Part shown: positions 7,120 to 54,675 of the stretch, piece by piece
Layout: every line of letters starts with the position of its first letter
Position numbering within the stretch: the first letter of the stretch is position 1
Assembly (NCBI GenBank): GCA_963663805.2
Contig: CAXXMR010000019.1
Coordinates: forward strand, 96,001 to 160,000
Length of the DNA stretch: 64,000 bases
Source of the DNA: Sedimentisphaerales bacterium
GTDB taxonomy: Bacteria; Planctomycetota; Phycisphaerae; Sedimentisphaerales; SM23-30
Reading direction: 5' to 3'
Notes under the pieces: model-generated
Told to the model about the DNA's origin: nothing
Database searches by the model: none
Seen by the model: the letters and a program-made list of their open reading frames with translations, nothing else
Translations under genes and position numbers: made by a program

Positions 7120-8031
7120 TCAGGGACGGGGGTGGTATTTCTTATGTATCCCTCTGAGGTGTTCCTGGTCAACGTGGGTGTAGATTTGGGTGGTGGTGAC
7201 ATTTACATGGCCGAGCATTTCCTGAACCGAGCGGAGGTCGGCTCCGCCCTGAAGCAAGTGGGTTCCGAAGCAGTGTCGCAGGGTGTGGGGTGTGACCTTT
7301 CCTATCATTCCTGCGTTTCGGGCGGTTCGTTTGACGATGCGCCAGATTTCGATACGGTCCAGCGGTCGGCCGGTACGCGAAACAAAAAGGTTCTGAGTAG
7401 TTTTAGTGCCGACAAGTATAGGCCGTAATTCTTTAAGGTAAGTGGTGACCAGATTTAGAGCGTGTTGATGGACGGGGACGACTCTTTCTTTTCGGCCTTT
7501 ACCGAAGCAGCGTAGGAATCCTATCTGGAAATTTATATTTTCAATTTGCAGGTCCGCTATTTCCGAAGCCCTCATTCCGGTGGCATAGAGTAGTTCCAGA
7601 AGAGCCCGGTCGCGCATCGCTAGTGAACTTTCCGGGTCAACCGCGGCGAGCAGTTCGTTGGTCCGCTGTTTGGTGAGGACGCGGGGCAGACGCTGCCAGG
7701 TTTTGGGTGATTCGATGACCTGACAGATGTCGGTTTTAATCTGAGAGGTCAGCAGATGAAAGCGCAGGAACATTTTTACCGCGGAAAGATGCCGGGCGAT
7801 GGTAGCGGTGGAAAGTTTCAGATTGAAAAGTTCGCGGGCGAAGTTCTGAACATCCAGCGGTTTAATGATGTTGGGGTCGCGTAGCTGTTTTTCGGTGCAG
7901 AATTCCGCGAAACGCCGGATGTCTCGATGGTAGGCCAGGACGGTATTTTCGGTCAGGCCACATTCGGCATCGAGATAACCGAGAAATGGTTTAATCTGAT
8001 TTTGGGGCCAATTTCCCTGGGGTGGAGTCAT
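7120..8031 (-). CDS. xerD: site-specific tyrosine recombinase XerD
   Basis: LELLYATGMRASE, GKGRKERVVP, TPHTLRHCFGTHLLQGGADLRSVQEMLGH, TTQIYTHV..HPR. Confidence 0.93.
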   Translation of the reverse strand: MTPPQGNWPQNQIKPFLGYLDAECGLTENTVLAYHRDIRRFAEFCTEKQLRDPNIIKPLDVQNFARELFNLKLSTATIARHLSAVKMFLRFHLLTSQIKTDICQVIESPKTWQRLPRVLTKQRTNELLAAVDPESSLAMRDRALLELLYATGMRASEIADLQIENINFQIGFLRCFGKGRKERVVPVHQHALNLVTTYLKELRPILVGTKTTQNLFVSRTGRPLDRIEIWRIVKRTARNAGMIGKVTPHTLRHCFGTHLLQGGADLRSVQEMLGHVNVTTTQIYTHVDQEHLRGIHKKYHPRP

Positions 8032-26830: not shown

Positions 26831-27850
26831 ATGATAGTTGTAATGACGCCGAGCTTTACGGAGAGTCAGCTGGAACATGTGGTGCAACTGGTTGAGGAGA
26901 TGGGGCTGACGAGTCATATAATTCGTGGTACCGACCGCACGGTTGTGGCGGCGGTTGGTGATAAACGGATGGTTGACAAGGGTGCGTTGGAGAATGCCGA
27001 GGGGGTGGAAAAGATCGTACCGATTCTTTCGCCTTTTAAGGTTGCCAGTAAGGAAGTCAAACAGGAAAAGACTGTCATTCATTTGCAGCCCAACGGCCCG
27101 GCGGTGGGCGGTAAGCGTTTGGGGGTTATCGCGGGGCCTTGTTCGGTGGAGGACCGGGCGCAGTTATTGGATGTGGCGGCTGCGATTAAAGAGGCTGGTG
27201 CGATTGGTTTGCGGGGTGGGGCGTTCAAGCCTCGGACCAGCCCGTATAGTTTTCAGGGTCTGGCGGAGAAGGGTCTGGAATATCTGTCCGAAGCGCGGGA
27301 GCGTACGGGTCTGGCGGTGGTGACGGAAGTTTTGACGGTTACGCATGTTGATTTGGTGGCTAAGTATGCTGATGTTTTGCAGGTGGGGGCGCGGAATATG
27401 CAGAACTTCATGCTGCTCAAGGCCGTAGGCGAACAGCCCAAGCCCGTGCTGCTGAAACGCGGAATGAGCGCGACGATGGAAGAATTTTTGTTGGCGGCGG
27501 AATATATTATCGCCGCGGGTAATAAGAACGTGATTTTGTGTGAACGCGGGATTCGTACCTTCGAGGAATATTGCCGGAACACATTCTCATTGAATTTGAT
27601 ACCGGCGATTCAGCGGGTCAGTCATCTGCCGATTATGGCGGACCCGACCCATGCCACCGGTCATGCTTATATGGTCGAGCCGATGAGCAAGGCGGCGATC
27701 GCGGCGGGTGCTGATGGTCTTTTAATAGAAGTCCATGCCGACCCGGAACATGCCTTTACCGACGCGGCCCAGCAGATAAGGCCGGAGCAGTTCGCCGAAC
27801 TAATGCACAAATGCCGTCGAGTCGCGACAGCGGTTGACAGGGAATTATAA
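26831..27850 (+). CDS. aroF: 3-deoxy-7-phosphoheptulonate synthase, class I-beta with N-terminal ferredoxin-like regulatory domain
   Basis: [47 protein letters not shown]. Confidence 0.96.
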
Positions 27851-30395
27851 GGTTTTGGCTCGGTCGGCGTCTTACTATCAACAGTTTGACTCCGATTCAC
27901 TGGCAGCAGACTGGCTGATTCGTGCCGGGCCGGTCCCGGCGCTGGCGGGGGCAGTGGCAGCGGGGATAATAATCAGTCGATATGAAGTGATGGGGGCGTG
28001 GGGTTTTGGTCTGATTTGTTTGGGTGCTTTGGCGACGGCATTGTTATTTCGTGGGCGGGGCGTTAAGGAAATCTGGTTCTGGTTTTTTCTGCTGACGGCC
28101 TGGGCGGCGCTGGGGGCGTTGCGGTATCAGCAGGTCTATAATAATTATCCGGTAAATCATATTGCCCGACTGGCTGGTGCCGAGCCGCGTCTGGCGACTA
28201 TCGAAGGGGTGATTATAAGTGAGCCTTATATTTCGCAGTCACGAGGTGCGCTGGCAGCATTTGACCGGATGCATCAGCCGCTGACGATTTTTACGTTGGA
28301 AGCAAGGCGGGCCCTGACGTGTGATGGGTTCGCGGAGATTTGCGGGGTTACTCAGGTGGTGATAGCTGAGCCGGCCTTGAATTTGGGGCAGGGTCAGCGG
28401 GTGCGGCTGGATTGCTGGCTGGTGCGGTACGGCGGGGTAAAAAATCCGGGGCAGTTTGATTATGAGGATACCCGCCGGGCCCAGAAGAATCTGACAACCT
28501 GTCGGGTAGAAAATTCCGAGGCGATTGAGATACTTTCGGGGGCGGGTTTGTCTCTGTTTGAGCGGGTGCGTAATTCGCTGCGGTATTATGCCGGTGAAGC
28601 TTTACGGGATGAGTATGGTTCGCAACGGGAAATGAGCGACACCGAAGCGTTTCTGGGGGCTTTGGTGCTGGGGCAGCGTTATGGTTTGCCGGAAGAACTA
28701 AACGAGAAATTTGTCAAGACCGGCACGATACATTTTTTGAGTGTATCGGGTTTGCACGTGGGGATTCTGGTGTGGTTTGTTTTGGCTTTGTGTCGGCTGG
28801 GGCGGGTGCAGCACCGAAACGAAGCGTTGCTGGTGCTGGCGACGCTGGCGGTTTATCTGCTAATAGTTCCGCCGCGGGCTCCGGTATTGCGGGCGAGTAT
28901 AATGGCGGTGGTGTTCTGTTTGTTTCTTTTGAGTCGGTATCCGTGGTCCGGTCCGGGCGGGGTGACGCAGCTGGCGGTGGCGGCGGTGGTTCTGCTTTTA
29001 GGGCGGCCGCTCGATTTGTTTAACGCGGGGTTTCAGCTTTCGTTTGTGGTGGTGCTGGCTTTGCTGGTTTTTGTGGGGCCGTTCCTGCGGGGGCGGATTC
29101 ACTGGTCCACAACGGACCCGCTGGCGGATAAACTCGCCCAGGCGGCGCGGGAATATTACGACTCTGATTTGCCCTGGTATCGCTATGCCGGGAAAGTTTT
29201 ATTTGTGTGGGTTAAGGGGATTGTCGTGGTGGCTCTGGTAGCGTGGCTGGTGAGTATGCCGCTGACGGCTTATCATTTTCATCGGGTTTCGCTGGTGGCG
29301 GGATTGGGTTCGATTCTTCTGGCCCCGTTGATTTTCGTTACTTTGATAATGGCGTTTATTAAAATCATCGTGGGCGTGGTGCTGGGCAGCGGGATTGGTA
29401 TTCTGACCGGGGCGGTGGATGGTTTGGCAGGGGCCAATATTTTTGTTATTGATAAGCTGGCGGGGGTTCCGTTTGCTTCGATTAATACGGCGGCACCGTC
29501 GATATATTTCATTTGGGTTTATTACGCGATTCTGGCGAGTATGGCTTATACCATTATGCGGTGGGGCCGGGTTTATGTTTTGCAGGTTCGGGCGGCGGTT
29601 CTGGGGCTGATACTTTTCGCGGTGCTGCTGCCGATACGCGGGCACGAGAAAGGTACGCTGGAGGTTCATTGTCTGGCGGTGGGGCCGGGATTGGCGACGG
29701 TTGTCGAGATGCCGGATGGGAAGACGCTGGTATATGATGCGGGCAGTTTGATGAATTTCGATGTGGGCAATAAAATCATAGCACCGTTTATCCGACAGCG
29801 GGGGATTAACCGTATTGACGGGCTGTTTATTTCGCACGCTAATATCGATCACTATAACGGAGTGTTAGATTTAGCGGATTTAATTCCGGTTGATAAGGTT
29901 TATGTGACGGAATATTTCATAAGGGCCGGGGAATCGTCATCGGCGGTTAGATTTCTGCTGGAAGGTTTAGCGATACGAGGGATTGCGGTTGAGGCCATTG
30001 GTCGCGGTGCGGAGGTTATGGGAGACGTGGAGGTGCTTTGGCCGCGGGCGGGGTTGGAATATGGATGTGACGATAATGATACTTCGCTGGTGCTGCGGGT
30101 GGCGGAGAAGGTGCTGTTGACCGGTGATGTTGAACTTGCCGGGCAGGTAGAGTTGATGCGGGAGACGGCAGCGGATAAATTACGGGCGGAAGTTATGGTC
30201 CTGCCGCATCACGGCGCGACGCCGGATTCTCTGCGGGCCTTGCTGGCTAAGGTGAATGCTGATATTATGATTTGTTCGTCTGGTAAGCTCTCGGAGTCGC
30301 GGCAGGCGAAACTGGCTGAGATTATTCAGGGGACGCGGTTTTGGCATACGTACCGGGATGGTGCGGTTAGTTGTAAAGTGCAAATGCAAAAATAA
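27834..30395 (+). CDS. comEC: ComEC/Rec2 DNA-uptake competence protein
   Basis: [34 protein letters not shown], then an MBL domain ([26 protein letters not shown]). Confidence 0.95.
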
Positions 30396-31638
30396 ATACA
30401 CAAGGGAGTAAATGTTATGCGAAATAATTATACGACACTCAGCCTGCTGTTGACATTGATTTTTTGCGGGGATTTATGGACTGGTCAGGAATCCGACGGT
30501 AAAGCCGCAACGGGTGAGCGGGTATACTGGGTAGGGAATTTTCTGGCTGATGAAGGATACTGGAATACGCATGTCTTGATGTCTGATTATATTTCGGATG
30601 AAGATAGAGAGTCGATAATTCAGCGATGTAAAGATCACGGTCTCAATCGAATTCATATTTATGGTGTTAATGACGACAACTATTCCGAAAGGCGCGGCGG
30701 TGATGTCTGGAAAGGTGTAGCCAATCGGGCCCTGGAATATGCTCCGGAAAAGTTTGACCATTGGTTTCACTGGTTTGTAATGTGCCGTCGGGCAGGCATG
30801 AATATTACTTTATGGCTGTGGCCCAACGATGCTCGCCAGACTTATAACCATGAAAAGGTCTGGGATGATGACCGGGTGGTCGCCAAGATGAAGGAGCTGA
30901 TAGATTTTTCACAGACGCCTTATAAATCGCCCGATGGAGAAAAAGATTTGCTGGTCGATGAACTGGTTTTGAAGTTGGAGGCGGACGATGAATGGAACTC
31001 GGACCGGATTAACCGGATAGCCCGCCGGGTGCGTCCGCTGCTAAAGCAGGGGCAGACTTTTTGGTATCACAATCAGATTATCGCAGATACCCGGGGAGTT
31101 GACTGGAGCCTCTTTGACGGGATTCGGATTCAAAGCGGCCATCGTCGCGGAATATGGGAAAGCGCAACCGGCGGCTGGAGTGAAGAAGGGTTACAATGTG
31201 CCATGCGTGAGATTATAGATGTCCTTCCCGATACATTGCAGATTTATTTTAGCGAGTTTACCTTTAATGGTTTTAAGGAGTCCAATCTGGGCGATGCACT
31301 ATTGCGTAATTTACCTAAAGAGTATCCGAACCGTATATGTGGTTCGGATAATGGCGGAGTTATGAGGTGATTGAAATTCTGTCCGGTGCATTTTTTATTG
31401 GGAGCTTGCCTGGCAGGTAGAGTTGATGCGGGAGACGGCGGCGGAGAAGTTGCGGGCGGAAGTTATGGTCCTGTCGCATCACGGCGCGACGCCGGATTCT
31501 TTGCGGGCCTTGCTGGCTAAGGTGAAGGCCGATACTTCGATTTGTTCATCGGGTAAGCTCTCGGAGGCGCGGCAGGCGAAACTGGCTGAGATTATTCAGG
31601 GGACGCGGTTTTGGCATACGTACCGGGATGGCGCAGTT
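30135..31638 (+). repeat. 234-bp direct repeat of the comEC 3' end (30135-30368 and 31405-31638)
   Basis: Manual alignment gives 17 mismatches, no indels and an offset of 1270 bp. Confidence 0.97.
30417..31370 (+). CDS. secreted hypothetical protein, possible TIM-barrel glycoside-hydrolase-like fold
   Basis: GGGAG RBS and signal-like N-terminus; GLNRIHIY, GMNITLWLW, LKLEADDEW, IRIQSGH and YFSEF follow a beta/alpha pattern. Confidence 0.55.
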   Translation: MRNNYTTLSLLLTLIFCGDLWTGQESDGKAATGERVYWVGNFLADEGYWNTHVLMSDYISDEDRESIIQRCKDHGLNRIHIYGVNDDNYSERRGGDVWKGVANRALEYAPEKFDHWFHWFVMCRRAGMNITLWLWPNDARQTYNHEKVWDDDRVVAKMKELIDFSQTPYKSPDGEKDLLVDELVLKLEADDEWNSDRINRIARRVRPLLKQGQTFWYHNQIIADTRGVDWSLFDGIRIQSGHRRGIWESATGGWSEEGLQCAMREIIDVLPDTLQIYFSEFTFNGFKESNLGDALLRNLPKEYPNRICGSDNGGVMR

Positions 31639-31671
31639 GGTGTTCGGGTTGATTTGTCGAGTTGGGAATAA
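31402..31671 (+). pseudogene. orphan comEC 3' fragment with an alternative C-terminus
   Basis: In-frame copy of the last ~80 ComEC codons with no 5' part; ends GAVGVRVDLSSWE* instead of [11 protein letters not shown]. Confidence 0.9.
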
Positions 31672-31712
31672 AAAATGATCAATGTACCGGATACGTTCCA
31701 GAGGAGTGCCTG

Positions 31713-32243
31713 ATGAAAAAGATCGTGATAATCGGCTGCTGCGGAGGGGGCAAGACTACCCTGGCATATACTCTTTCCCAAAAGCTGTCGATCGCGGCTT
31801 ATGATCTCGATGATTATTTCTGGCACGCCGGTTGGGTTGGCACTCCAGATGGCCGCTGGCAGCAGGTTCAGCGTGAACTTGTCGATCGAGACAGCTGGAT
31901 CATCAGCGGTACTTACGTTTCGACATTGGATATTCGCACCGCTGCCGCCGACACCATCATTTTCCTCGATTTACCGCTTTGGCTGTGTTTTTGGCGGGTG
32001 ATCAAACGCAAGGCAAAGAATTATTGCGGCCTGGAGCGAAATCTGCCCCGGAGGGTTCAGGGCAGCCATAAATTCGGCTTTAAAGCCATCCGAAGTGACC
32101 TTGGCTTCCTGTGGTATGTTTTGATGTTCAAGAAAAATTTGAATGCTCCCATCCGCACCGCATTAAAAAATATCAAGCCCGGCAAAAGAATCATCGAGCT
32201 GAGTTCCCCGCAAGCGGTCGCGGAATTTGCCGGCAGTATATAA
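31713..32243 (+). CDS. adenylate-kinase-like P-loop protein (FlaR / topology modulation protein family)
   Basis: GAGGAG RBS; MKKIVIIGCCGGGKTTLA, LDDYFW..GW, WIISGTY, ADTIIFLDLP..C.WRVIKR. Confidence 0.88.
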   Translation: MKKIVIIGCCGGGKTTLAYTLSQKLSIAAYDLDDYFWHAGWVGTPDGRWQQVQRELVDRDSWIISGTYVSTLDIRTAAADTIIFLDLPLWLCFWRVIKRKAKNYCGLERNLPRRVQGSHKFGFKAIRSDLGFLWYVLMFKKNLNAPIRTALKNIKPGKRIIELSSPQAVAEFAGSI

Positions 32244-32539
32244 CGGGGGGGGGCAAAAAGGTGTAAGGTGCATTTCTCTGAAGCCCCTGATTTGGCGAAA
32301 CTTCGTAGGTCCACCGCCGGGGGGAGTTTTTTTTGATTATTCTTGCAATTTCCGGGTTTTTATAATAGATTCACCGTAGATTTCATTGTCGCGGTGCTTT
32401 TTGGGCCGTGGCGGATGTTTAATTTAGTAGAAGGGGCCTGTCGTTTTAAGCCCGGTTGCGGATTGTTGGTGGATGATGATCTTGAAATATCTTTATGTTG
32501 CGCGGGGCACGTCAGCTATTAGCTTCTTAGGAAAACTTA

Positions 32540-34144
32540 ATGTCTGATATCTACAAACTTATTCTGGCATTACACTCATCAAAGCCATGGTCTAGCTGGC
32601 GGAGCCAGCCAAATAAAGTTCAGACACTTAGGTCAATCTCTGAAATCGGTACGCCTTTTACGATATCGTCAATATTCCAATTTGTTTTTTCTGGCAATAA
32701 GAGTATTTCTCTTGAGGCAGCTATTGCTGTTCGTGATCTGATTTCAAAAACAAAACTCTCTCAATGGACAAAACTTTATCCTTCATTCCAATATATTAAC
32801 ATTTCCGAAAGTCAATTACGAAAACTCCGTCAATTTCCTAGTTCTTTACAAATTCATCTTTTGGGGATTGCATCCCTGAACGGAAATGGGTATATCCGGC
32901 AAGAAGCTGTTCAAGCGTTGCAGAGTTTCACTTCACCCGAGAAGATTCCATACATTATGCTGCGGCTCAGCGATTGGGTATCTCAAGTTCGAAACGTTGC
33001 CGAGTTTGCTTTTAGCGAATGCTTGAAAAAGGAATACGCCGAAGCATTCTTGTCTTATGTTTGCATCATAGATAGTATGACTCGTGTTGAAAGATTTGAT
33101 CTTTCTTTAATTGAAGATCAAATAACTTTGTTTTTAACATCTGAGGATTCAGTCGAACATTTGCAAAAGGCGTTAGGTCACTCCGATACAAGAGTTCGTT
33201 TATTTTGTTACAGATTATTGCTTCGCAAGTCTTTAGGTGACCTCTGTCTGATTGAGAAAGGGGCCAGAGACACAGATTCTAAAGTTCGCTCATTAGTATT
33301 ACAAAAGCTACAGGATACTCCAATTGAACATAAGATAAAGTATTTTTACATTTTCCTGCGAGATCCTTCACCGAAAATATGTTCAGCAGTAATGATGTCA
33401 ATTCCTGAGGCTTACTGGCAAGAATTTCGCAATATAATTGTCGACAATATTTTCAATAAATCCGCCTCAATCAGAAATACGGCAAGATTTCTTTTGCAAA
33501 AACATGAAGATTTTGACTTTGCTGTCCAATATCGAAAGCGTATTAAAGCTGGGCTTGTTTCGCAAGGCACGCTGTCGGGTTTGGCTGAAACCGGCAGTGA
33601 GGAAGATTTTGATGTTCTCATAAGATTTACAGACTATTCACGTTCCAAAGCCAGAGCAGCCGCACTGGCTGGTTTGCATAGACTTAACCCGAAATTATCA
33701 ATCCCTCTGCTAATTAAAGCTTTGAGAGATCCTGCGGCAAGAGTTAGGCGTGCAAGTTGTAAGATACTCTGCAAATATCGCCATTACGACAGAAACTTAG
33801 TAAGACAAATTTTCAAAGATGGTGCAGCTAATAGCAAGATTACTGCTTTGAGAGTATTGTGTGATTCTTTGGATTGGGATTCTCTGGAAGATATTTTTCT
33901 AATGATAGCTGACAAAGAAGAGTGTGTCCGAAATGCTGCGTGGAGCATATATGTAAAATGGTTCCAGAGGCGCAGCGTTAATAATTGGGTAAAACCTTCT
34001 CGGCAAGTTTTGTATTCGTTGGAGGCCAAACTCAAGGAGTTTGACTCAATGCCAGTAAATATCCCGGATTTGGTCGCGGAGGAATGGAGGGGACTACCGG
34101 TCTTACTTGAATCTGGTAAAAAAATATGGAAGCTAGGGAAGTGA
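32540..34144 (+). CDS. HEAT-repeat protein (AT-rich accessory gene)
   Basis: NGYIRQEAV, LRLSDWVSQVR, DTRVR, DPAARVRRA helical repeats; codon usage is visibly more AT-rich than the flanking genes. Confidence 0.85.
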   Translation: MSDIYKLILALHSSKPWSSWRSQPNKVQTLRSISEIGTPFTISSIFQFVFSGNKSISLEAAIAVRDLISKTKLSQWTKLYPSFQYINISESQLRKLRQFPSSLQIHLLGIASLNGNGYIRQEAVQALQSFTSPEKIPYIMLRLSDWVSQVRNVAEFAFSECLKKEYAEAFLSYVCIIDSMTRVERFDLSLIEDQITLFLTSEDSVEHLQKALGHSDTRVRLFCYRLLLRKSLGDLCLIEKGARDTDSKVRSLVLQKLQDTPIEHKIKYFYIFLRDPSPKICSAVMMSIPEAYWQEFRNIIVDNIFNKSASIRNTARFLLQKHEDFDFAVQYRKRIKAGLVSQGTLSGLAETGSEEDFDVLIRFTDYSRSKARAAALAGLHRLNPKLSIPLLIKALRDPAARVRRASCKILCKYRHYDRNLVRQIFKDGAANSKITALRVLCDSLDWDSLEDIFLMIADKEECVRNAAWSIYVKWFQRRSVNNWVKPSRQVLYSLEAKLKEFDSMPVNIPDLVAEEWRGLPVLLESGKKIWKLGK

Positions 34145-34403
34145 CGGTGTCCGGGGGAAGTGACGGTGTCCGGTACATTTATTTTTCCTTTTGCGGTAAA
34201 GACTTGTGAAATAATTGGTTCCGGGGAATTTCTTTTTCTTGAGAAGGGCCGCCGGGTGAAAAATACCGGAAAAACACTTGTGTTTGCCGAGCAATTCCCT
34301 TATTATTATAATTGTTAAAAGGCTCAGCCCCTTACAGTTGGTTCCGTGCGTGATGAGGGAGCGGAGGCATTTCAAGGCAGTTTCTTTGGGCAAGGAGAAA
34401 ATA

Positions 34404-35285
34404 ATGTTCAAGGCAATCCTGGTTTCATTGGTGTTTTTGACCTCTTTTACTTTTACTTTTACTTTTGCTTTTGCTGATTGCCCGGCGGCTGACATAAACG
34501 GCGACTGCCGGGTTGATCTGGAAGATTTAGCTATTCTGGCCTCGGAATGGCTGACGTATGGATTTCCCGAAGGACCGGCGGGCATGGTCTGGGTGTCTAT
34601 CAACGATCCGGGTGTTTCCGGCCACGAAGGCTTCAATGGTCAGATGAGCCGATACGAAACGACCAATGCCCAATATGCTCAGTATCTCAATGCCGCCCGG
34701 GTTTCCGGTGATATTACAGTCAGCGGCAATTATGTTGTAGGCAACAGCGGTCCTTATTCCGGTGAGAATTATTATCGACTTGATGGTTCCGGCTATACTA
34801 CCGATGGGGTCACCAACGGCGGTGCGGCCCGAGTCAACTGGACGGGCAGTTCGTTCACGGTTGACAGCGGTTTTGAGAATCACCCGGTAACTTATGTGAG
34901 CTGGTATGGTGCCACGGCCTTTGCGAGCTACTACGGCTGGCGTCTGCCGACGGAGTGGGAATGGCAGGCGGTGGCAGATTACGACGGCAGCTATACCTAT
35001 GGCTGCGGGACGAGCATCAATACCAGCATTGCCAACTATCTGGGCGCCATCCATCCATACGGCACCACGGCAGTTGGTGCCTTCGGAACATCTGGCTACG
35101 GGATGACGGATATGACAGGCAATGTTTGGGAGTGGACCAGCGGCTTATATGATCCCGCAGATAGCTACCGCGTTCTGCGCGGCGGCGGCTGGAGCAGCAG
35201 CGACGTCAGCTGTTCGTTCTCGTACCGCAACGGCAGCTTCCCGTACGGCCTGTACCGCAGCTACGGCTTCCGGGTGTGTCGTTGA
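34404..35285 (+). CDS. secreted FGE-sulfatase (SUMF1/C-type lectin fold) domain protein with N-terminal dockerin-like motif; probable DGR target
   Basis: AAGGAG RBS, signal peptide, ADINGDCRVDLEDLAILASEWL, YETTNAQY, HPVTYVSWYGA, RLPTEWEWQ, DMTGNVWEW, RVLRGGGW...GFRVCR. Confidence 0.9.
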   Translation: MFKAILVSLVFLTSFTFTFTFAFADCPAADINGDCRVDLEDLAILASEWLTYGFPEGPAGMVWVSINDPGVSGHEGFNGQMSRYETTNAQYAQYLNAARVSGDITVSGNYVVGNSGPYSGENYYRLDGSGYTTDGVTNGGAARVNWTGSSFTVDSGFENHPVTYVSWYGATAFASYYGWRLPTEWEWQAVADYDGSYTYGCGTSINTSIANYLGAIHPYGTTAVGAFGTSGYGMTDMTGNVWEWTSGLYDPADSYRVLRGGGWSSSDVSCSFSYRNGSFPYGLYRSYGFRVCR

Positions 35286-35490
35286 GTGCTCCTGCTCCTG
35301 GATTTATTTATCCTTTGCTCTTTGTTCTTTTACCCTTTGCGGGGTCCAGGGGCGCAGCCTCTAGGAAACGAATTGCTGTCTGGTACATTTGTTTTTCCGT
35401 AATTCAGATGTCAGAAATCAGCAGAAAAAACATGAACCACGAAGTTCACGAAGAAATATTATTGAAATCTTAAAACTTCGTGTCCTTCGC

Positions 35491-36255
35491 GGGAAACGAA
35501 CGGTGTCCGGTACATTTATTCCTCCCGGCCCCGGATAATAAAAACCGACTGAACCCCACCACCTCGGGTTTATCGTTCTTAAGAGGAAGGCAAGAGGCAA
35601 GAGTGAAGGTTTGGCCTCCGGCCAGTTGAAACCTTATCAATGCCGTATTCAGCAGAAAAAATCTGGACCACGAAGGCACGAAGGACACGAAGTTAAAAGA
35701 ATTCTTAATATTTTCTTCGTGAACTTCGTGTCCTTCGTGGTGACAAATCAGAAATCAGAGATCAGATGTCAGTTGTCAGCCGAAAAACGGCTTAATAATG
35801 CTGATAATCCCGAAAACTTAACCTTGCCGACCGAAGGGGCAGGTTATCACAGATTTACCGTCCCATAAAAACCCCGGCGGCGTAACGGCGCTTTTAGCGC
35901 AGCGGCTGCGACTAAGTCGTAAGAGCTGCGCTTAAAGCGCAGGAGCTACGACTAAAGGAATCAGAGCTGCGCTAAAGTCGCAGGGGCTGCGACGAACTGC
36001 ATCGTCTCTGCGCTAAAGTCGCCAGAGCTGCGACAAAAGCGCAGAAGCTGCGACTAAAGGAATTATCTCTGCGACAAAGTCGCGGGAGCTGCGCTTAAAG
36101 CGCAGAGGCTGCGACAAAAGAATAATCCCGCCGATCTAAGCGCAGCTCCCCCGACAAAAGCGCCATCTCCCCGATTTAATCCTCGGCCCGCCGCCAAAAT
36201 CGCAGCTTCGCTGCTTTAGTCGCCAGTCAGCCGGTTAAAGGAAAACTCCTCCGCT
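35491..36255 (+). repeat. composite non-coding trailer element, copy 1
   Basis: Homologous to 53834-54675. Order: motif, ~140 bp near-identical block, long hairpin (35667-35741), heptamer run, 20-21 bp array, conserved 70 bp tail. Confidence 0.9.
35888..36180. repeat. tandem array of ~14 degenerate mini-hairpin units, period 20-21 bp
   Basis: Units start at 35905, 35925, 35945, 35966, 35986, 36007, 36027, 36047, 36068, 36088 and 36108, e.g. CTGCGC-TTAAA-GCGCAG and GCGAC-AAA-GTCGC. Confidence 0.9.
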
Positions 36256-36448
36256 CAAGCGGTCGCATTGCGGCAAAAACGCCGGGTGTCCGGGCGGATG
36301 AACTGATTTAACTAACTGGGCGGCAGGGAGTTGTTGTATTATTGGCTGAGGCGGGGGAGTTTTTGGTTTTTTGTTTGGCTGAGGCGAGCTTTGGACTAAA
36401 ATCTAATAGGTACGGATATGAATGTAAATATTTATTCGAGTGAGATGT

Positions 36449-39343
36449 ATGGATAGACAACAGCAGCGTGAGGCGTTGGGGGCTGAGCTGGGCCGGGCGG
36501 TCAGGGGGCAGGTTCGTATTGATGCTATGGCTTTGGCGTTGTATAGCACTGACGCGAGTATCTATCAGATTGAGCCGCTGGCGGTGGTGCTGCCGGTCGA
36601 TAGCGATGATGTGGCGGCGGCGGTGGCTTATGCCGCTCGGAACAAGCTCAGCATCGTGCCGCGCGGGGGCGGCAGTGGTTTGGCGGGCGAAGCGGTTGGG
36701 CCGGGGATTGTCATCGATATGAGCCGGTTTATGAACCGCATTGGGCGGGTCGATGCCGAAGCTAATGAAGTTGTGGTTGGTCCGGGGGTGATATTGGCGG
36801 AACTTAATCAACAATTGGCGGCGGTCGGTAAGCAGTTTGGGCCGGACCCGGCCAGCGGGAATCGGGCGACTATCGGCGGGATGACGGGTAATAACGCTAC
36901 CGGTGCCCATTCTTTGAAATTTGGTTATACCGGTGCGCATATTCGCTCGGCGAAAATCGTGGCTGCTGATGGTGAACTGCTGGAAGTGGGACGCTATGCT
37001 AACGCCGCCGGTCAGGTCGGTCGGGTGGGTAAGTGGGCTGAGCAGATTGATGGACTGATTAAAGAACATCGGGATGCCCTTATCAAGGCGCGGCCGGAAC
37101 CGGAGCGGAACGGCAGCGGGTATAATCTGTATCCTTTTATTGACCATGATGATTTTCCGCTGGTGGAGCTGCTGGCCGGCTCGGAGGGTACGCTGGCGGT
37201 TGTTACCGAGGCGACGTTGGGGCTGGTGGATTTGCCGCCGGTTAAGATGCTGCTCCAGGTTAATTTTGATTCTCTGTCGAAAATGGGTCAGGCTGTCCCT
37301 GAAATACTCAAGCTCGACCCGTCGGCCTGTGAGTTGATGGATGGGAAGCTGCTCAAGATGGCGCGTGATGCCTATCCGCGTTATCATGATGTATTGCCGG
37401 ACAAGATCGCGGCTTCGCTGCTGGTGGAATTTGATGGGGCTACGGAATCCGAAGTAAATCAAAAACTCACTAAGGCCCGCCAATTTGTCGAACAGTTCGC
37501 TTCTAACATGAAACCAGTGTTCATCAAAGAAGTAACCAGTCCGGCGGTTCAGGCTCGGATATGGGCGGCTCGGAAGGCGGCGGTTCCTTTGCTGTTTCGT
37601 ACCGACGGGGAGACTCAGCCGATCCCGGTGATAGAAGATATCGCGGTGCCGCCAGCGCGGCTTGATGAATATCTCTGCAAACTCGACGAAATTACTAAGC
37701 GTATGGGTGTGCCGATGGCTTATTACGCTCACGCGGGGCACGGCGAGCTGCATACGCGGCCTTATCTGAACCTGCGACTTAAAGAAGATGTTCAGAAAAT
37801 GAAAGACCTGGCCGAGGAAGTTTTTGAGATGGTCTGGCAGTTGGGTGGGACTATCAGCGGAGAGCATGGCGAGGGGATTGTGCGGGCTTCGTTTATCAAG
37901 AGGCAGTACGGCGAAGAAGTTTATAATCTGTTCAAGTCGGTCAAGGGTGTTTTCGACCCGGATAATGTGATGAACCCCGGCAAGATAATCAATGAAGACC
38001 CGGAAGCCATGACCAGTAATCTGCGTTTGCAAAATCGTCCGGTGATGAACTATAAGACCAATCTTATTTTTCGGCCCGGCGAGTTTGTTAATGAGATGGA
38101 AAAGTGCAGCGGTGACGGTCTTTGCCGGTCGAAGGATGTGCTGCTGAGTATGTGCCCGATTTTTCGGGCGTTAGGTGATGAAGAATCAAGTCCTCGTGGT
38201 AAGATTAACCTCATGCGCAATTGGCTAATCGGCAAGCTGGACCCGGAGATTCTAGGGACCGATGAGTTCAAGGCTGTCGCGGATCTTTGCGTAAATTGCA
38301 AGATGTGCGTCCGCGAATGCCCGTCGCTGGTTAATACACCGAAGCTAATGATGGAGGCCCGGGTTGAATATGTGCGTCGTCACGGGTTGACCCGTCCTCA
38401 GTTCGCGCTGGTCAACAGTGAATGGATGAGCCGACTGAGTTCGACTTTTGGGCCGTTGGCAAACTTCTTTTTACAGACCGGCTGGTTCCGGGCGATTATG
38501 CAGACAGTGCTTGGCCTTGATAAACGTCGTCCCATGCCGCCTTTTGAGATGGGCAGTAACCTTCATAAGCTGCGCAAGCATATCGCGTCGCTGCCTGAAT
38601 TGGCCGCTCCGCAGGCGAAGGTGGCTTATTTTGTTGACCTCTACGCGAACTTCAATGACCATCAGCTCGGTCGTGCTGTTGTCGATATTCTTCACCATAA
38701 TAATATTGAAGTAACCGTCCCGCCGCAGATGGGGGTCTCTATGCCGGCGATAACTTATGGTGCGATCAAGACTGCTAAAAAAGCCATTGCTTATAATGTG
38801 GATTATCTCGCGCGGGCAGTGAAGGAAGGTTATACTGTTGTTTGCAGCGAACCGACCGCGGCTTTGGCATTGCAGGAAGAATATCTTGATTTGGTGGATG
38901 ACGAGCAAGCCAGACTTGTTGCCGAAAATACCGTTGAGCTGACCGACTTCCTCAGCTCGCTGCATAAAGACGGCAAACTCAAAACTGATTTTCGGGCCCA
39001 GAAAATGACGCTGGCTTATCATGTGCCGTGTCATTACAAAGCACTGAATATTGAAGGCGGGACGCTTGAGCTTCTGTCGCTTATTCCTGGTCTGGAAATT
39101 GAACGCTTGCCTAACAGCTGCTGTGGGATAGCGGGGACGTTCGGGTTTCAGAAAAAGAATTTCGATTTATCCATGAAGGCGGGCGAACCGATGCTGGCGG
39201 TTTACTCCCAAAGCAAAGCTGATTACGGGCTGACCGAATGCGGGACATGTAAAATGCAGATGGAGCTGGCGGGCGATAAAAAGGTGCTGCATCCGGCGAA
39301 AATTCTCGCCCACGCTTATGGCCTGGGACAGTATATAATCTAA
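36449..39343 (+). CDS. FAD-linked oxidase / Fe-S cluster (GlcD-GlpC-type) oxidoreductase fusion
   Basis: YSTDASIY, PRGGGSGLAG, GPDPAS, GSEGTLA, AHAGHGELH, ISGEHGEG, CVNCKMCVRECPS and CCGIAGTFG CCG domains. Confidence 0.92.
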   Translation: MDRQQQREALGAELGRAVRGQVRIDAMALALYSTDASIYQIEPLAVVLPVDSDDVAAAVAYAARNKLSIVPRGGGSGLAGEAVGPGIVIDMSRFMNRIGRVDAEANEVVVGPGVILAELNQQLAAVGKQFGPDPASGNRATIGGMTGNNATGAHSLKFGYTGAHIRSAKIVAADGELLEVGRYANAAGQVGRVGKWAEQIDGLIKEHRDALIKARPEPERNGSGYNLYPFIDHDDFPLVELLAGSEGTLAVVTEATLGLVDLPPVKMLLQVNFDSLSKMGQAVPEILKLDPSACELMDGKLLKMARDAYPRYHDVLPDKIAASLLVEFDGATESEVNQKLTKARQFVEQFASNMKPVFIKEVTSPAVQARIWAARKAAVPLLFRTDGETQPIPVIEDIAVPPARLDEYLCKLDEITKRMGVPMAYYAHAGHGELHTRPYLNLRLKEDVQKMKDLAEEVFEMVWQLGGTISGEHGEGIVRASFIKRQYGEEVYNLFKSVKGVFDPDNVMNPGKIINEDPEAMTSNLRLQNRPVMNYKTNLIFRPGEFVNEMEKCSGDGLCRSKDVLLSMCPIFRALGDEESSPRGKINLMRNWLIGKLDPEILGTDEFKAVADLCVNCKMCVRECPSLVNTPKLMMEARVEYVRRHGLTRPQFALVNSEWMSRLSSTFGPLANFFLQTGWFRAIMQTVLGLDKRRPMPPFEMGSNLHKLRKHIASLPELAAPQAKVAYFVDLYANFNDHQLGRAVVDILHHNNIEVTVPPQMGVSMPAITYGAIKTAKKAIAYNVDYLARAVKEGYTVVCSEPTAALALQEEYLDLVDDEQARLVAENTVELTDFLSSLHKDGKLKTDFRAQKMTLAYHVPCHYKALNIEGGTLELLSLIPGLEIERLPNSCCGIAGTFGFQKKNFDLSMKAGEPMLAVYSQSKADYGLTECGTCKMQMELAGDKKVLHPAKILAHAYGLGQYII

Positions 39344-51184: not shown

Positions 51185-51472
51185 TTAAATACCAGCCTGA
51201 TACGACACTGGCTGGCCTCCAGACTGGCGATGTATTTTTTAGCCGACCAGACCACGCGGCTCCGGGGGGAAAAATCCGAAGACCACTCTGGAACAGGTCG
51301 CCGATGCGGCCAATATGCTGGCCTGGAAGCTATGGAAGTTGTATCCCATTCCTGGAAATACAAAGTGTATGTGTGTCAATACCATCAGGAATGTAATCAA
51401 ACCTCCTATGCCAGCCGAAGAAAAACGGCGAAAGCGAAAAGTGTCGAATTCTTATAGCGCTGTCACACTAAA
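51185..51472 (+). mobile_element. 3' remnant of an IS701-family transposase and probable right end
   Basis: LIRHWLASRLAMYFLADQTTRLRGEK with a GGGGGAAAAA slip into the TLEQVADAAN..YHQ..N..SY..R frame resembles IS701 C-termini; ends at TAGCGCTGTCACACTAA. No catalytic DDE region is present. Confidence 0.6.
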
Positions 51473-51586
51473 GTTATACTCTCACGCCTGCCCATAACGA
51501 AAAGATAACAGAACTGCCAGAAATATCAATTAAAAAATGTACCTGACAACCTCTTATGTAACATAATTCGTCCCGGAGCATCTCCT

Positions 51587-53734
51587 TCATAGTTTCTTTA
51601 ATTCGCCCCAGTGTAAATACTCATAGGCCTTGTCGCTGGAACTTGCCGGCATTTTCTGGTCATGAACAGCCTCCAGGTCGTTAATGCCTACATCAGAAAT
51701 AAACGAAGTGCTAACGGTACTTTCTGAAGCGATAGTCGGAACCGGCAAAGGACGGGCGTGCAGTTCGATATAAGGAATCCAAACAACCATAGGCTGTTTT
51801 CCACGGTGGGCACGGGCATAATATGGTATCATCTTGAAATTTCGTTTGGTTCTTTTAACATCCTGCGATTTTTCCTTTTGCAATTCTATGGCATGGCCCC
51901 GGAGAAGAACCATACCTCCCAGAAATTCCTCATCATAATCTGCCGTCAGTTCAGAGTTGTTCTCTATCATTATATTCAAGGGGTTTCCGCCTTCTAAGTC
52001 CTGCTGCTCAAGGCAGTATACCACCGGGCCGCGCTGTACAGCGATTTTGCCGACATTATCCGCAACTCGTCGGTCACATAACACGCGGCGAACAGGCATT
52101 GAGAATTCCACTTCTACAACATCCCCCTTCTTCCAGCTTTTTTTGAGACAGGCGTAACCTTTTTCCTCTACAACTTCGCATACCTTGCCATTTAACAGTA
52201 TGGTGTAATTATCAGCAAGAGGTTCGACAAATGTATAAAGTGCTGAGGAAGAACGCCAGCCTTGGGCCCAATCGGGGACGCGAATTTTCAGAGTGAACGT
52301 CTTTTCTTCCTGAGGGTCAACGTTAATCAATATTTTTCCGTTCCAGGGATATTGAGTATTCTGGGTAAGTTTTAAAGCGGTGCCGTCTACGTCAAATTCA
52401 GAGCGGCTGCCGATAAAAAGATTAACATAGACCTGGCGGTCACGAACAGCATAAACGTAACCCGGCATAGAATTCAAAAAGCGACAAATATTACTGGGGC
52501 AACAGGCAGTATTGAACCACGGGCTCCGCTCCTGCCCCGCGACAGCCTCCAAAGGATTGGGGTAAAAGAACGTCATGCCGTCCATAGAAACACCACTAAG
52601 AACATTGTTGTATAAGGCCCTTTCCATAATATCAACATACTTTGAATCGCCGTGCAGCAGAAACATACGATGGTTCCAGTACACATTTGCAATCACGGCG
52701 CAAGTTTCGCAATAGGCTGTCTGGTTGGGCAATTCGTATGGATCACCGTAGGATTCGCCGTGATGCCGGGCACCAATTCCACCGGTAATATACAATTTTC
52801 GATTTGCGACATCATCCCATATTTTATCAATGGCCTGAATGAACTTCTGATTGTCGGTCAGGGCTGCAACATCGGCCATGCCGCTATACATATAAGTTCC
52901 GCGTACCGCATGTCCGACAGCCTCAAACTGCTCGGTTACAGGTATATGCGACTGGTCATATTCTCGCTGGTTTTGGGGGTCACTGCCCCGGCAATCCAAA
53001 AAACGTTGGGCCTGGTCCAGATATTTCTTCTCGCCGGTCACACGATAAAGCTTAACCAAACCAATCTCAATTTCCTGATGGCCTGGGAAACCGTCCCTCT
53101 TTCCGGGGCCAAATACATCACAAACCAAATCCGCATTTTTAATTGCCACATTCAAGAAAGTTTTTTTACCAGTGGCAAGATAATGCGCTGCGGCAGCCTC
53201 ATACATGTGCCCGACATTATAAAGTTCGTGCGAGCGGTGCAAATTATCCCACGGCTCTTTTTTGTAGCAACAGCCCATTTTATGATTATTGGCCTCCTGC
53301 GCTCGCGATGTCCAGGCGGTATAGAGGTAGCCGTTTTCTTCCTGGGCAGCGGCTACGTAAGAAATAACCTTATCCAGATAAGCGTCCATTTGCGGGTCCG
53401 GCTTGAGCATCAGTGAATAAGCGGCGGCTTCCATAATTTTATATACGTCTGAATCATTGAAGCCCGTCTTGCCCTGATAAGGCTGATTGGATAACCCCCC
53501 GGCAAGTTTGAAATTTTCGATTCTGCCGGTATCCTCACATTTCTTAAACGCAAACGGTATAGTAACCGTGCGGTTGGTCTCCATTCGTCCCAGCCAGAAA
53601 GAATCATTAAAATGTACCTGCCTGAAAGTGACAGGCTGATAAGGGTAATCTGACAGCTCAGCATTAACCGGCACAACACTTATCAAAGCCAAAGATATAA
53701 AAAACATTTTCTGAAACATTCGTAACCCTTTCAC
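51587..53734 (-). CDS. glycoside hydrolase family 127 (beta-L-arabinofuranosidase-like), apparently C-terminally truncated
   Basis: Signal peptide; FNDSDVYK, HELYNVGH, GHQEIE, GHAVR, YCETCA, ERALYN, CCPSNI, RGPVVYCLE. Confidence 0.92.
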   Translation of the reverse strand: MKGLRMFQKMFFISLALISVVPVNAELSDYPYQPVTFRQVHFNDSFWLGRMETNRTVTIPFAFKKCEDTGRIENFKLAGGLSNQPYQGKTGFNDSDVYKIMEAAAYSLMLKPDPQMDAYLDKVISYVAAAQEENGYLYTAWTSRAQEANNHKMGCCYKKEPWDNLHRSHELYNVGHMYEAAAAHYLATGKKTFLNVAIKNADLVCDVFGPGKRDGFPGHQEIEIGLVKLYRVTGEKKYLDQAQRFLDCRGSDPQNQREYDQSHIPVTEQFEAVGHAVRGTYMYSGMADVAALTDNQKFIQAIDKIWDDVANRKLYITGGIGARHHGESYGDPYELPNQTAYCETCAVIANVYWNHRMFLLHGDSKYVDIMERALYNNVLSGVSMDGMTFFYPNPLEAVAGQERSPWFNTACCPSNICRFLNSMPGYVYAVRDRQVYVNLFIGSRSEFDVDGTALKLTQNTQYPWNGKILINVDPQEEKTFTLKIRVPDWAQGWRSSSALYTFVEPLADNYTILLNGKVCEVVEEKGYACLKKSWKKGDVVEVEFSMPVRRVLCDRRVADNVGKIAVQRGPVVYCLEQQDLEGGNPLNIMIENNSELTADYDEEFLGGMVLLRGHAIELQKEKSQDVKRTKRNFKMIPYYARAHRGKQPMVVWIPYIELHARPLPVPTIASESTVSTSFISDVGINDLEAVHDQKMPASSSDKAYEYLHWGELKKL

Positions 53735-53833
53735 CTGGTATTGAACATCTGCGATTGTACTAAAGTTGCACCTTCCAGTTGTCTTCCTGTCGTATGCTGA
53801 GTTCTTATCAAAAAAAATAGTAATTTGTCAAGG

Positions 53834-54675
53834 GGGAACGAAACGGTGTCCGGTACATTTATGCTTTCCGGCCCCGGATAATAAAAACCGACTGAACCCC
53901 AACACCTCGGGTTTGTCGTTCTCAAGAGGAAGGCAAGAGGCGATAGGCAAGAGTGAAGGTTTGGCCTCCGGCCAGTTGAAAATTTTGTTAATAATCCGGC
54001 TCGGTACGCTGTCTCGTGAGGTTTCCCCCCGGCTGCCGCCGAATCAGTTGTCCGCAGAAATTTGAACCACGAAATACACCAAATACACGAAAGAATTATA
54101 TTTCTTTTTTTTGTGTCGTTCGTGTGTTTCGCGGTTTTAATCTCTTGGCAGTTGCCGTTAATAATCCGCGTAATTCCATTAATCCGCGGTTTCATTTTTT
54201 ATAAGCTGTAATTGTCAGCGGAGAACCGCTGTAATAATACTGATAATCCTGAAAGTTTCGTCTTTCTGACTGATGAATCATGTTATAACAGATTTGACGT
54301 CCCATAAAAACGCATGCGGCGTTATTCCGCTTAAATCAGAGCTCTGCCGCTTAAAGAATCAGAGTTCTGACTTAAGAATCAGAGCAATGACGAAATGATT
54401 TGCTTTGCTGACAAAGTCAGCAGAGCGCCGCACAAAGGAATCGTTCCGCTGACAAAGTCAACAGAGCGCCGACAAAAGAATTCATCCCGCTGACAAAGTC
54501 AGAAGAGTTCTGACCAAAGGAATCATAGCGCCGACTTTGTCAGCAAAGCTCTGATTAAATCAGCAGAGCTATGACAAAAGAATCAGGCCACCGCTTTAAG
54601 AATAGACCCGCCGCCCAAATCGCAGCTTCGCCGCTTTTCTCGCCGGTCAGCCGATTAAAGAAAAACTCCTCCGCT
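53834..54675 (+). repeat. composite non-coding trailer element, copy 2
   Basis: 53834-53980 is nearly identical to 35491-35630 (one extra heptamer). Hairpin at 54066-54137. 54210-54311 and 54607-54675 align to 35770-35873 and 36187-36255. Confidence 0.9.
54325..54605. repeat. tandem array of ~14 degenerate mini-hairpin units, period 20-21 bp
   Basis: Units such as GCTGAC-AAA-GTCAGC, CTGA-TTAAA-TCAG and TGAC-AAAAG-AATCA. Confidence 0.88.

Follow-up and report, generated by a model that had tools for sequence, protein, structure and literature searches.

The 64-kb window analysed here, a single stretch of a Sedimentisphaerales-like genome (4.75 Mb, 35 contigs, about 50% GC), carries downstream of the core gene comEC four co-oriented accessory genes that are punctuated by copies of a short repeat. 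An earlier inspection of its letters, hereafter the sequence-only reading, had described a 14-base motif after these genes, had compared the array with an integron and had proposed that units of upstream DNA, gene and motif accumulate there one after another. Our analysis showed that the motif is the conserved core of an intergenic repeat of about 35 nt, of the REP/TIR type (repetitive extragenic palindrome/terminal inverted repeat), that this repeat is associated with a RAYT-like (REP-associated tyrosine transposase) gene of the HUH/Y1 type located on another contig, and that it is the specific landing site of an IS110-family element. It is a known kind of bacterial repeat and not an integron, though it is clustered beside foreign-looking genes.

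Genes were called with a crude home-made caller (3722 calls, 84% coding), which caught the HEAT gene of the array only in a second pass. Coordinates without a label refer to the window, and the labels C3 to C20 designate other contigs of the same genome. The features of the window are the following.

27834-30395 (+): comEC, a core gene of 853 aa that precedes the array (Pfam Competence, DUF4131 and Lactamase_B); its 3' end is copy A of a duplicated segment
30118-30131 (+): motif-like 14-mer inside comEC, 10/14 identical to repeat copy 1, encoding a conserved LTGD and ending exactly at the start of the duplicated comEC segment
30417-31370 (+): gene 1, accessory, a 317-aa exported hypothetical protein without Pfam or NCBIfam family; found in 0/24 family genomes
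31366-31401 (+): repeat copy 1, core 31380-31393, G variant (nhmmer E 0.039)
31402-31671 (+): displaced, decaying comEC 3' remnant (copy B), starting 9 nt past the core of repeat copy 1
31680-31693 (-): degenerate antisense copy of the motif, 2 mismatches, 9 nt past the stop codon of the remnant
31713-32243 (+): P-loop kinase-like gene of the FlaR or "DNA topology modulation" type, accessory (NCBIfam PRK08118, 141 bits, below the cut-off of 215); matches in 2/24 family genomes, at most 31% identical
32246-32285 (+): repeat copy 2, core 32262-32275, degenerate (nhmmer E 2.5); its G-run and A-rich 5' flank suit the family
32286-32478 (+): dispersed repeat of about 190 nt, starting 11 nt past the core of repeat copy 2, 82-89% identical to C18:118284-118474 and C10:34088-34267
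32540-34144 (+): HEAT-repeat gene (Pfam HEAT_2) in a low-GC island of 37-43% GC; weak match in 1/24 family genomes
34136-34188 (+): repeat copy 3, core 34167-34180, with its 19-nt 5' part tandemly duplicated (nhmmer E 2e-6)
34405-35285 (+): FGE-sulfatase-domain gene (Pfam FGE-sulfatase), reading frame open from 34278, with a paralogue on contig C15
35364-35398 (+): repeat copy 4, core 35377-35390 (motif scan, nhmmer)
35403-36255 (no strand): mosaic of other short repeats (hairpins, tandem hairpin units of about 20 nt) that is also present after motif copies at three further loci
35491-35525 (+): repeat copy 5, core 35504-35517, leading a mosaic of further intergenic modules; 35491-35631 is 90% identical to 53833-53981
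51465-51548 (-): motif copy (core 51535-51548) fused to the dead left end of a transposase unit, with a promoter-like stretch, the first 10 or so codons and then a stop
53833-53869 (+): consensus copy with its core at 53847-53860, followed by the same mosaic as copy 5 (motif scan, nhmmer)

Copies and architecture of the repeat

The five motif copies lay where the sequence-only reading had placed them, all on the + strand, at 31380, 32262 (2 mismatches), 34167, 35377 and 35504, and the domain searches agreed with its description of the four genes. A scan of the window at ≤2 mismatches returned nine matches when 0.79 were expected, a number that none of 100 shuffles reached. The additional matches were located at 31680 (-), 51535 (-), 53847 (+) and 56718 (+), the last of which falls within a GH57 gene and is probably due to chance. 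The extended repeat is composed of a G-run and an A-rich stretch, (C/A)GG, TGTCCGG, TACATTT and a T-rich stretch ending in CC or a C-run. In the whole genome, 44 matches to the 14-mer were found at ≤1 mismatch, the 16-mer GGTGTCCGGTACATTT gave 33 matches while its reversed control gave 0, and an nhmmer profile detected about 55 copies (E ≤ 0.3).

Loose palindromy, between the A-rich and the T-rich arms, was visible only in the family consensus, and the copies at C13:29762 and C13:27774 are degenerate doublets. An Rfam scan of positions 29500-37000 returned nothing at the motif and two sub-threshold microRNA matches, in the hairpin mosaic only. A second core variant, with GGTCCCCGGTACATTTT instead of GGTGTCCGGTACATTT and its own type of 5' flank (GGGAGAATTTAA...), was observed at C15:116-128 kb, C13:27219, C20:107282 and C14:139230, and was clustered on C15.

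The tandem duplication reported earlier at 34136-34173 is real: the 19-nt unit GGGAAGTGACGGTGTCCGG is present twice, and the TGA of the HEAT open reading frame (ORF), at 34142-34144, is supplied by the first unit. The TGA of gene 1 (31368-31370) is located within the 5' flank of repeat copy 1. In at least 12 of the about 55 copies of the genome, the 5' half of the repeat (the variable A-rich flank with all or part of GGTGTCC) was reiterated as two to four units with a period of 11-20 nt and junctions at short G-runs, and the same signature was found in other genera. Such duplications may result from slippage or re-joining that happens repeatedly and locally at the repeat and that a transposase nick near TCC/GG might begin. 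Recurrent in several genera, they may mark the cut site of the enzyme and are worth specialist attention.

The RAYT-like transposase and the IS110-family element

At four loci the motif was followed by one fixed sequence leading to an ORF that begins with MGRRKRITLGGYVYHV. The sole intact transposase gene of the genome linked to the motif, C9:558145-558876, encodes a protein of 244 aa that matched Pfam Y1_Tnp with 47 bits (cut-off 23). It is bracketed by inverted motif copies at C9:558128 (+) and 558859 (-), the right copy being inside the coding end. Comparison of 12 homologues revealed no variation in the HUH motif (HWH) or in the catalytic tyrosine, located in RYIEANP, and the protein also has a conserved C-terminal extension of about 90 aa. 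When a profile of 12 homologues was searched against the PDB, the best match was E. coli TnpA_REP (4ER8, E 3e-7), ahead of the IS200-family TnpA 2XM3; the same search with the single transposase protein gave no match. Dead remnants of the transposase unit were found at C9:520283, at C14:139165, at C13:7738 and at about 51465-51548 of the window, and the count in the genome is about 55 repeat copies to one intact transposase gene.

RAYT-like homologues were present in 19 of the 25 family genomes. The motif flanked the homologue at 5 of 14 loci, in five genomes including our own (on both sides in three and up to the contig end in two), and the other nine loci were without the motif. Insertion sequences of the IS200/IS605 type are multicopy units that have subterminal hairpins instead of inverted terminal repeats and often carry tnpB. 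An IS200/IS605 identity was rejected for the motif-linked gene, which has one intact copy with inverted flanks. A separate IS200-type Y1 transposase, unrelated to the motif, occurs in 13 nearly identical copies with a 177-aa ORF (e.g. C3:139165 and C13:126004), and no motif copy was listed near these 13.

The motif was preceded at nine loci by the right end of an IS110-family element, the transposase of which scored 225 bits with NCBIfam transpos_IS110 (cut-off 140). All nine intact copies of this element (9/9) occupy one position, in one orientation, in the extended repeat, and the insertion point is located between ...GAATTAA (also given as ...AATTAA) on the left and AGGTGTCCGGTAC... (also written AGGTGTCCGG...) on the right. 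The copy on C9 measures 1597 nt and has terminal inverted repeats CATCTGGCTT(T)CATAG and a 3' non-coding region of about 385 nt. This region holds CGGACACCTT, a 10-nt complement of the target bases across the insertion point, for which the chance expectation is roughly 0.07 by our own estimate from the lengths. The complement is only suggestive of a candidate guide (seekRNA or bridge RNA), and the element is probably RNA-guided. A debris pile at 51440-51600 (-), beside a GH127 gene, combines a fragment of about 45 nt of the IS110 left end, a motif copy and the dead left end of a transposase unit.

Genomic distribution, relatives and neighbouring repeats

Intergenic locations accounted for 50 of the 55 copies, compared with a non-coding share of 16% in the genome, and the upstream gene was co-oriented with the copy in 38 of these 50. 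Many copies were 6-50 nt past stop codons, and convergent gene pairs held 15 copies while divergent pairs held 5. Between co-directional genes the sense orientation exceeded the antisense by 23 to 7. This bias was 20 to 7 (p 0.02) when the three copies behind the IS110 transposase were removed, and 16 to 7 (p 0.09) when the four copies of the window were removed as well. The orientation of the repeat showed no bias with respect to GC skew, taken as replication strand (p 0.38). Several copies follow core genes, those for TruD, SMC, LigA, an HslU-like ATPase and a thioredoxin, so that accessory DNA is not the only setting of the motif.

Genes below 40% GC represent 3.7% of all calls. Among co-oriented genes located ≤150 nt upstream of a copy they represented 9 of 22, a proportion of 8 of 19 without the array of the window and of 3 of 10 when the strong copies (E < 1e-3) were considered. 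Within 1 kb of a copy we found 19 of the 137 low-GC genes and 110 of the 3722 genes overall. Co-oriented arrays of genes and repeats that include low-GC genes were also present at C13:27-30 kb and C19:183-185 kb. This strong enrichment after low-GC, foreign-looking genes merits a specialist's look.

The nearest genomes belong to different genera, with identities of at most 77% for the DAHP synthase gene and 34-38% for ComEC. None of the window's genes downstream of comEC was found behind the comEC of these nearest genomes; a metagenome scan with the C-terminal half of ComEC returned zero relatives. Four sequencing runs from one study, available as contigs only, agreed with the assembly in the structure of the region. 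The sole joint reported in them, from 32469 to 35541 with sides of 30 nt, probably comes from a paralogous repeat locus, and the comparison weighs neither for nor against mobility.

In a public genome collection the motif was found mainly in metagenome-assembled genomes (MAGs) of Sedimentisphaerales, Phycisphaerae and Planctomycetota, and single matches in unrelated taxa were, by our estimate, at the chance level for a 16-mer. At ≤1 mismatch the 16-mer was present in 11 of the 25 family genomes, with 33 matches in our own genome, 16 in one other and 1-4 in each of the rest. Another Sedimentisphaerales MAG has the motif as close inverted doublets, which are REPIN-like, and in a further unclassified MAG the motif brackets an internally deleted transposase remnant.

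The last 240 nt or so of comEC (30132-30371, copy A) recur directly after repeat copy 1, at 31402-31641 (copy B), with 92% identity, a duplication that the sequence-only reading had missed. Comparison of copies A and B showed 19 codon differences, of which 10 are synonymous and 9 non-synonymous. Copy B is a decaying remnant because residues conserved by relatives, the P of LPHHG and a G, are kept in copy A and replaced in copy B (P to S and G to W, respectively). The codon differences look like divergence under selection mixed with later decay, and one of the comEC copies may therefore have come from a related lineage. The duplication shows that the DNA was broken and rearranged beside a repeat copy at least once. 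The 10/14 look-alike that abuts the breakpoint in comEC is a weak, post hoc hint, since such matches are common by chance, at a background rate of about one per 1.8 kb per strand. A hybrid-junction model for the remnant, with the crossover inside CCGGTG, was rejected as a poor fit, because repeat copy 1 keeps its complete 3' tail.

Borders of other segments ≥150 nt, repeated or paralogous, abutted 23 of 74 copies, compared with 4.2 ± 2.0 at random intergenic sites, and the border was on the 3' side of the motif in 19 of the 23. The module set of about 750 nt that follows copy 5 is also found after copies elsewhere, at three loci (C18:119964-120733, C10:38833-39297 and 53833-54675 of the window). 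The 87% identity to the paralogous segment of the FGE gene on C15 stops at 35362, and the extended repeat of copy 4 begins 2 nt further on. Much of the border enrichment is a mosaic like the bacterial interspersed mosaic elements (BIMEs) of E. coli. As in BIMEs, the repeat heads mosaics of short conserved modules in varying combinations at several loci, whereas the modules themselves are unrelated in sequence to those of BIMEs.

Several of these modules were observed in their own right. Tandem mini-hairpins of about 20 nt at 35888-36260, with units like CTGCG-N-AAAG-N-CGCAG spaced by 20 or 41 nt, have no Rfam match and recur at C10:38833-39297 with 91% identity and, more loosely, at C18 and at 54212-54675 of the window. 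A 52-nt inverted repeat pair (35438-35489 and 35679-35730), together with an 18-bp perfect hairpin of CACGAAG-type words, forms a dispersed module also present on C20 and C8, for which Rfam gave only sub-threshold microRNA look-alikes. The dispersed piece of about 190-335 nt (32286-32478; C18:118163-118497; C10:33956-34290) precedes different gene sets at its three loci; its C18 instance comes directly after an IS66-family transposase gene, and the piece could represent either the end of an IS66 or a leader common to the three loci. Since this left piece and a right piece, the mosaic at 35491-36255, are found again at two or three other loci around different genes, a fixed "frame" for changing cargo was considered; it was set aside, as the left piece trails this IS66 transposase at C18 and the right piece behaves as general intergenic mosaic. 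A sigma-70-like promoter in the left piece (32286-32478) was also dropped, having a 12-nt spacer and not being called by the scan. At C13:27233-27394 an N-terminal fragment of an IS3-like transposase, multicopy and with 99-100% identity at its other sites in the genome, is truncated precisely at a motif copy. The FGE-sulfatase protein has, at 34450-34560 of the window, a single dockerin-like calcium-loop repeat DINGDCRVDLEDLAILASEW after its signal peptide.

Known systems and readings of the array

A REPtron associates REP or REPIN sequences with their own RAYT (TnpA_REP), as in E. coli and Pseudomonas, and such systems were reportedly described by Nunvar in 2010, Bertels and Rainey in 2011 and Ton-Hoang in 2012. 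The system found here shares with REPtrons the single intact HUH/Y1 gene bracketed by inverted copies of a short repeat, the dispersal of tens of copies of this repeat in intergenic DNA, TnpA_REP as closest solved relative and the inverted doublets of a related genome. It differs from them in having no GTAG tag, a weak single-copy stem-loop, a modest copy number of about 55, the C-terminal extension of about 90 aa, a right repeat within the coding end and a score below the cut-off of the NCBIfam RAYT model.

The fit is better to the TIRtron/TIRYT as described by Di Nocera, De Gregorio and Rocco (2013, PMC3733652). Their description covers RAYT-like genes flanked by inverted repeats that sometimes form dispersed families, TIR families that occur as singles, dimers and clusters, with tandem reiteration that includes flanking DNA, and REPs in Planctomycetes, R. 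baltica being among the repeat-rich genomes. The RAYT-like gene with inverted flanks that are not REP palindromes, the moderately abundant family, the singles, dimers and clusters, and the tandem reiteration with flanking DNA are common to that description and to our system. The sequence of the repeat is different here, and the low-GC enrichment and the IS110 targeting may be further differences. Insertion of IS110/IS1111 elements into REP sequences was reported by Tobes and Pareja (2006, PMC1525189), and the seekRNA and bridge RNA of these elements are presented in PMC11187229 and PMC11208160. As in those accounts, every copy here has one fixed position and orientation, and 10 nt complementary to the target are found in a long 3' non-coding region. 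Our element differs in its host, a planctomycete instead of Pseudomonas or E. coli, and the guide is here a candidate from sequence only.

An integron combines an adjacent IntI integrase and attI with cassettes bounded by attC sites, which have a bulged hairpin. The likeness lies in a series of co-oriented accessory genes that starts at a fixed point, with a short conserved site after every gene. The differences are that the integron integrase is absent, that the site is scattered throughout the genome, including after core genes, and that it has neither the consensus nor the structure of an attC. Of the 19 Phage_integrase matches in the genome, only one is in the window. This sole tyrosine recombinase, located at 7120-8031 (-), 22 kb from the array, is XerD-like and scored 329 bits on the XerD model and 145 bits on the integron integrase model (cut-off 265). 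The earlier statement that no integrase is in view was right as far as an integron integrase is concerned, the one correction being this XerD-like recombinase. The sequence-only reading was correct in refusing the name attC, the consensus RYYYAAC ... GTTRRRY being found at none of the five sites and folding being weak. Its comparison with a REP-like repeat and a RAYT acting in trans is supported by the HUH/Y1 gene on C9 with its inverted flanking copies. Its remark that the motif does not occur between housekeeping genes fails genome-wide, given the copies behind TruD, LigA and the other core genes.

We consider it likely that the repeats of the array belong to a family of the REPtron/TIRtron type, also the target of an IS110 element, that collects at the junctions of acquired genes. 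As in known REP-RAYT systems, the transposase on C9, acting in trans on single-stranded DNA, would have seeded and multiplied the repeat in intergenic DNA, and new repeats would have landed mostly just past the 3' ends of genes. The array behind comEC would be made of horizontally acquired accessory genes, the junctions of which would have been filled with the repeat and with other modules in a BIME-like mosaic, and at least one rearrangement would have left the displaced 3' end of comEC beside a copy. A preference for, or tolerance of, AT-rich targets may explain why copies gather at accessory-gene junctions.

Several results weigh against this reading. The best NCBIfam model for the transposase, REP_Tyr_transpos, gave 54 bits, below its cut-off of 80. 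Single copies, which the sequence-only reading had seen as small imperfect hairpins, showed only weak folding as DNA, with means of -2.7 kcal/mol and, for z, -0.25 over 44 copies. Copy-specific complementarity of the flanks was absent (permutation p 0.28 for 35 copies, nine with insertion sequence or transposase flanks having been dropped), and compensatory stems in the flanks were dropped as a candidate on the flank covariation test (p 0.28). Neither a GTAG nor a CGTC tag was found in the repeat sequence. The borders of the comEC remnant, of the piece of about 190 nt and of the FGE paralogue fall 9-15 nt from motif cores. Finally, a purely selfish repeat does not explain by itself the low-GC enrichment after genes, and it leaves unexplained the co-oriented arrays at no fewer than three loci.

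It is unlikely, in our judgement, that the transposase captures cassettes, that is, that it excises in trans the single-stranded DNA that reaches from one repeat to another in the same orientation (or to a look-alike) and pastes it beside another repeat, so that units of upstream DNA, gene and repeat would pile up behind core genes and an integron-like outcome would be reached by REP/RAYT chemistry. The arrays of the window, C13 and C19, with their low-GC genes, and the enrichment of the repeat after such genes are consistent with it, as is the 5'-half duplication in our genome and in other genera, which looks as if the repeat had been cut and rejoined near TCC/GG. The start of the comEC remnant 9 nt past the core of copy 1, with the look-alike abutting the breakpoint in comEC, would also fit, but a look-alike of this quality is expected by chance at the rate given above. 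The FGE paralogue, whose homology stops only 2 nt short of copy 4 in its extended form, and the preference for the sense orientation (20 to 7) would fit as well, although the latter falls to 16 to 7 without the copies of the window. Against capture, the four runs showed the same structure, with no presence/absence polymorphism, circle or junction there; a low-GC neighbour gene has homologues (at most 32% identity) in 7 other genomes, all without the motif; some low-GC islands have no repeat at their upstream border, e.g. C19:185104-185116; and the orientation of the repeat is independent of GC skew. The cassette idea survives what the sequence-only reading had itself named as telling against it, because the motif does not fall at random among types of gene (less than 40% GC in 9 of 22 upstream genes, compared with 3.7% of all genes), because the gene content of relatives differs, the array genes being rare or absent in the family genomes, and because three within-genome homology breakpoints are located near the cores. 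A sequential, integron-like accumulation of units is not shown, however, as the motif also follows core genes, the borders fit a BIME-like mosaic and the homologues in those 7 genomes lack the motif.

Very unlikely is a role of the repeat as a landing pad, at which RNA-guided IS110 recombinases, and perhaps other elements, would bring foreign DNA to pre-existing copies, with later decay leaving a gene followed by a repeat. The nine IS110 copies are all upstream of the core and co-oriented with it, which is the same geometry as that of gene and motif; IS110 and transposase remnants are found beside copies, and borders of other repeats are enriched there. However, no IS110 sequence was found next to any of the four cargo genes, and the island borders examined did not show the split half-site that an IS110-type insertion should have on its upstream side. 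The guide-like 10-nt complement of the target carried by the element would favour this role, against which stands its chance expectation. We regard as highly improbable a host function at the 3' ends of genes, as terminator, stabiliser of mRNA 3' ends or protein-binding site, although roles of this kind have been proposed for E. coli REPs. The many copies shortly past stop codons, the excess of convergent over divergent pairs and the T-rich tail after the core would suit such a function, but none of the five copies had a site called by the terminator scan, single copies fold weakly, and the positions of copies are not conserved between genera, with copy numbers from 0 to 33.

If it were true that the repeat bounds mobile gene units, this would be a new route of gene capture, which the present data do not show. 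The reading that we favour, of a REPtron/TIRtron-type family collecting at the junctions of acquired genes, adds to a little-studied order of planctomycetes a documented REP/TIR-type family that has a tyrosine transposase of its own and is targeted by an IS110 element.

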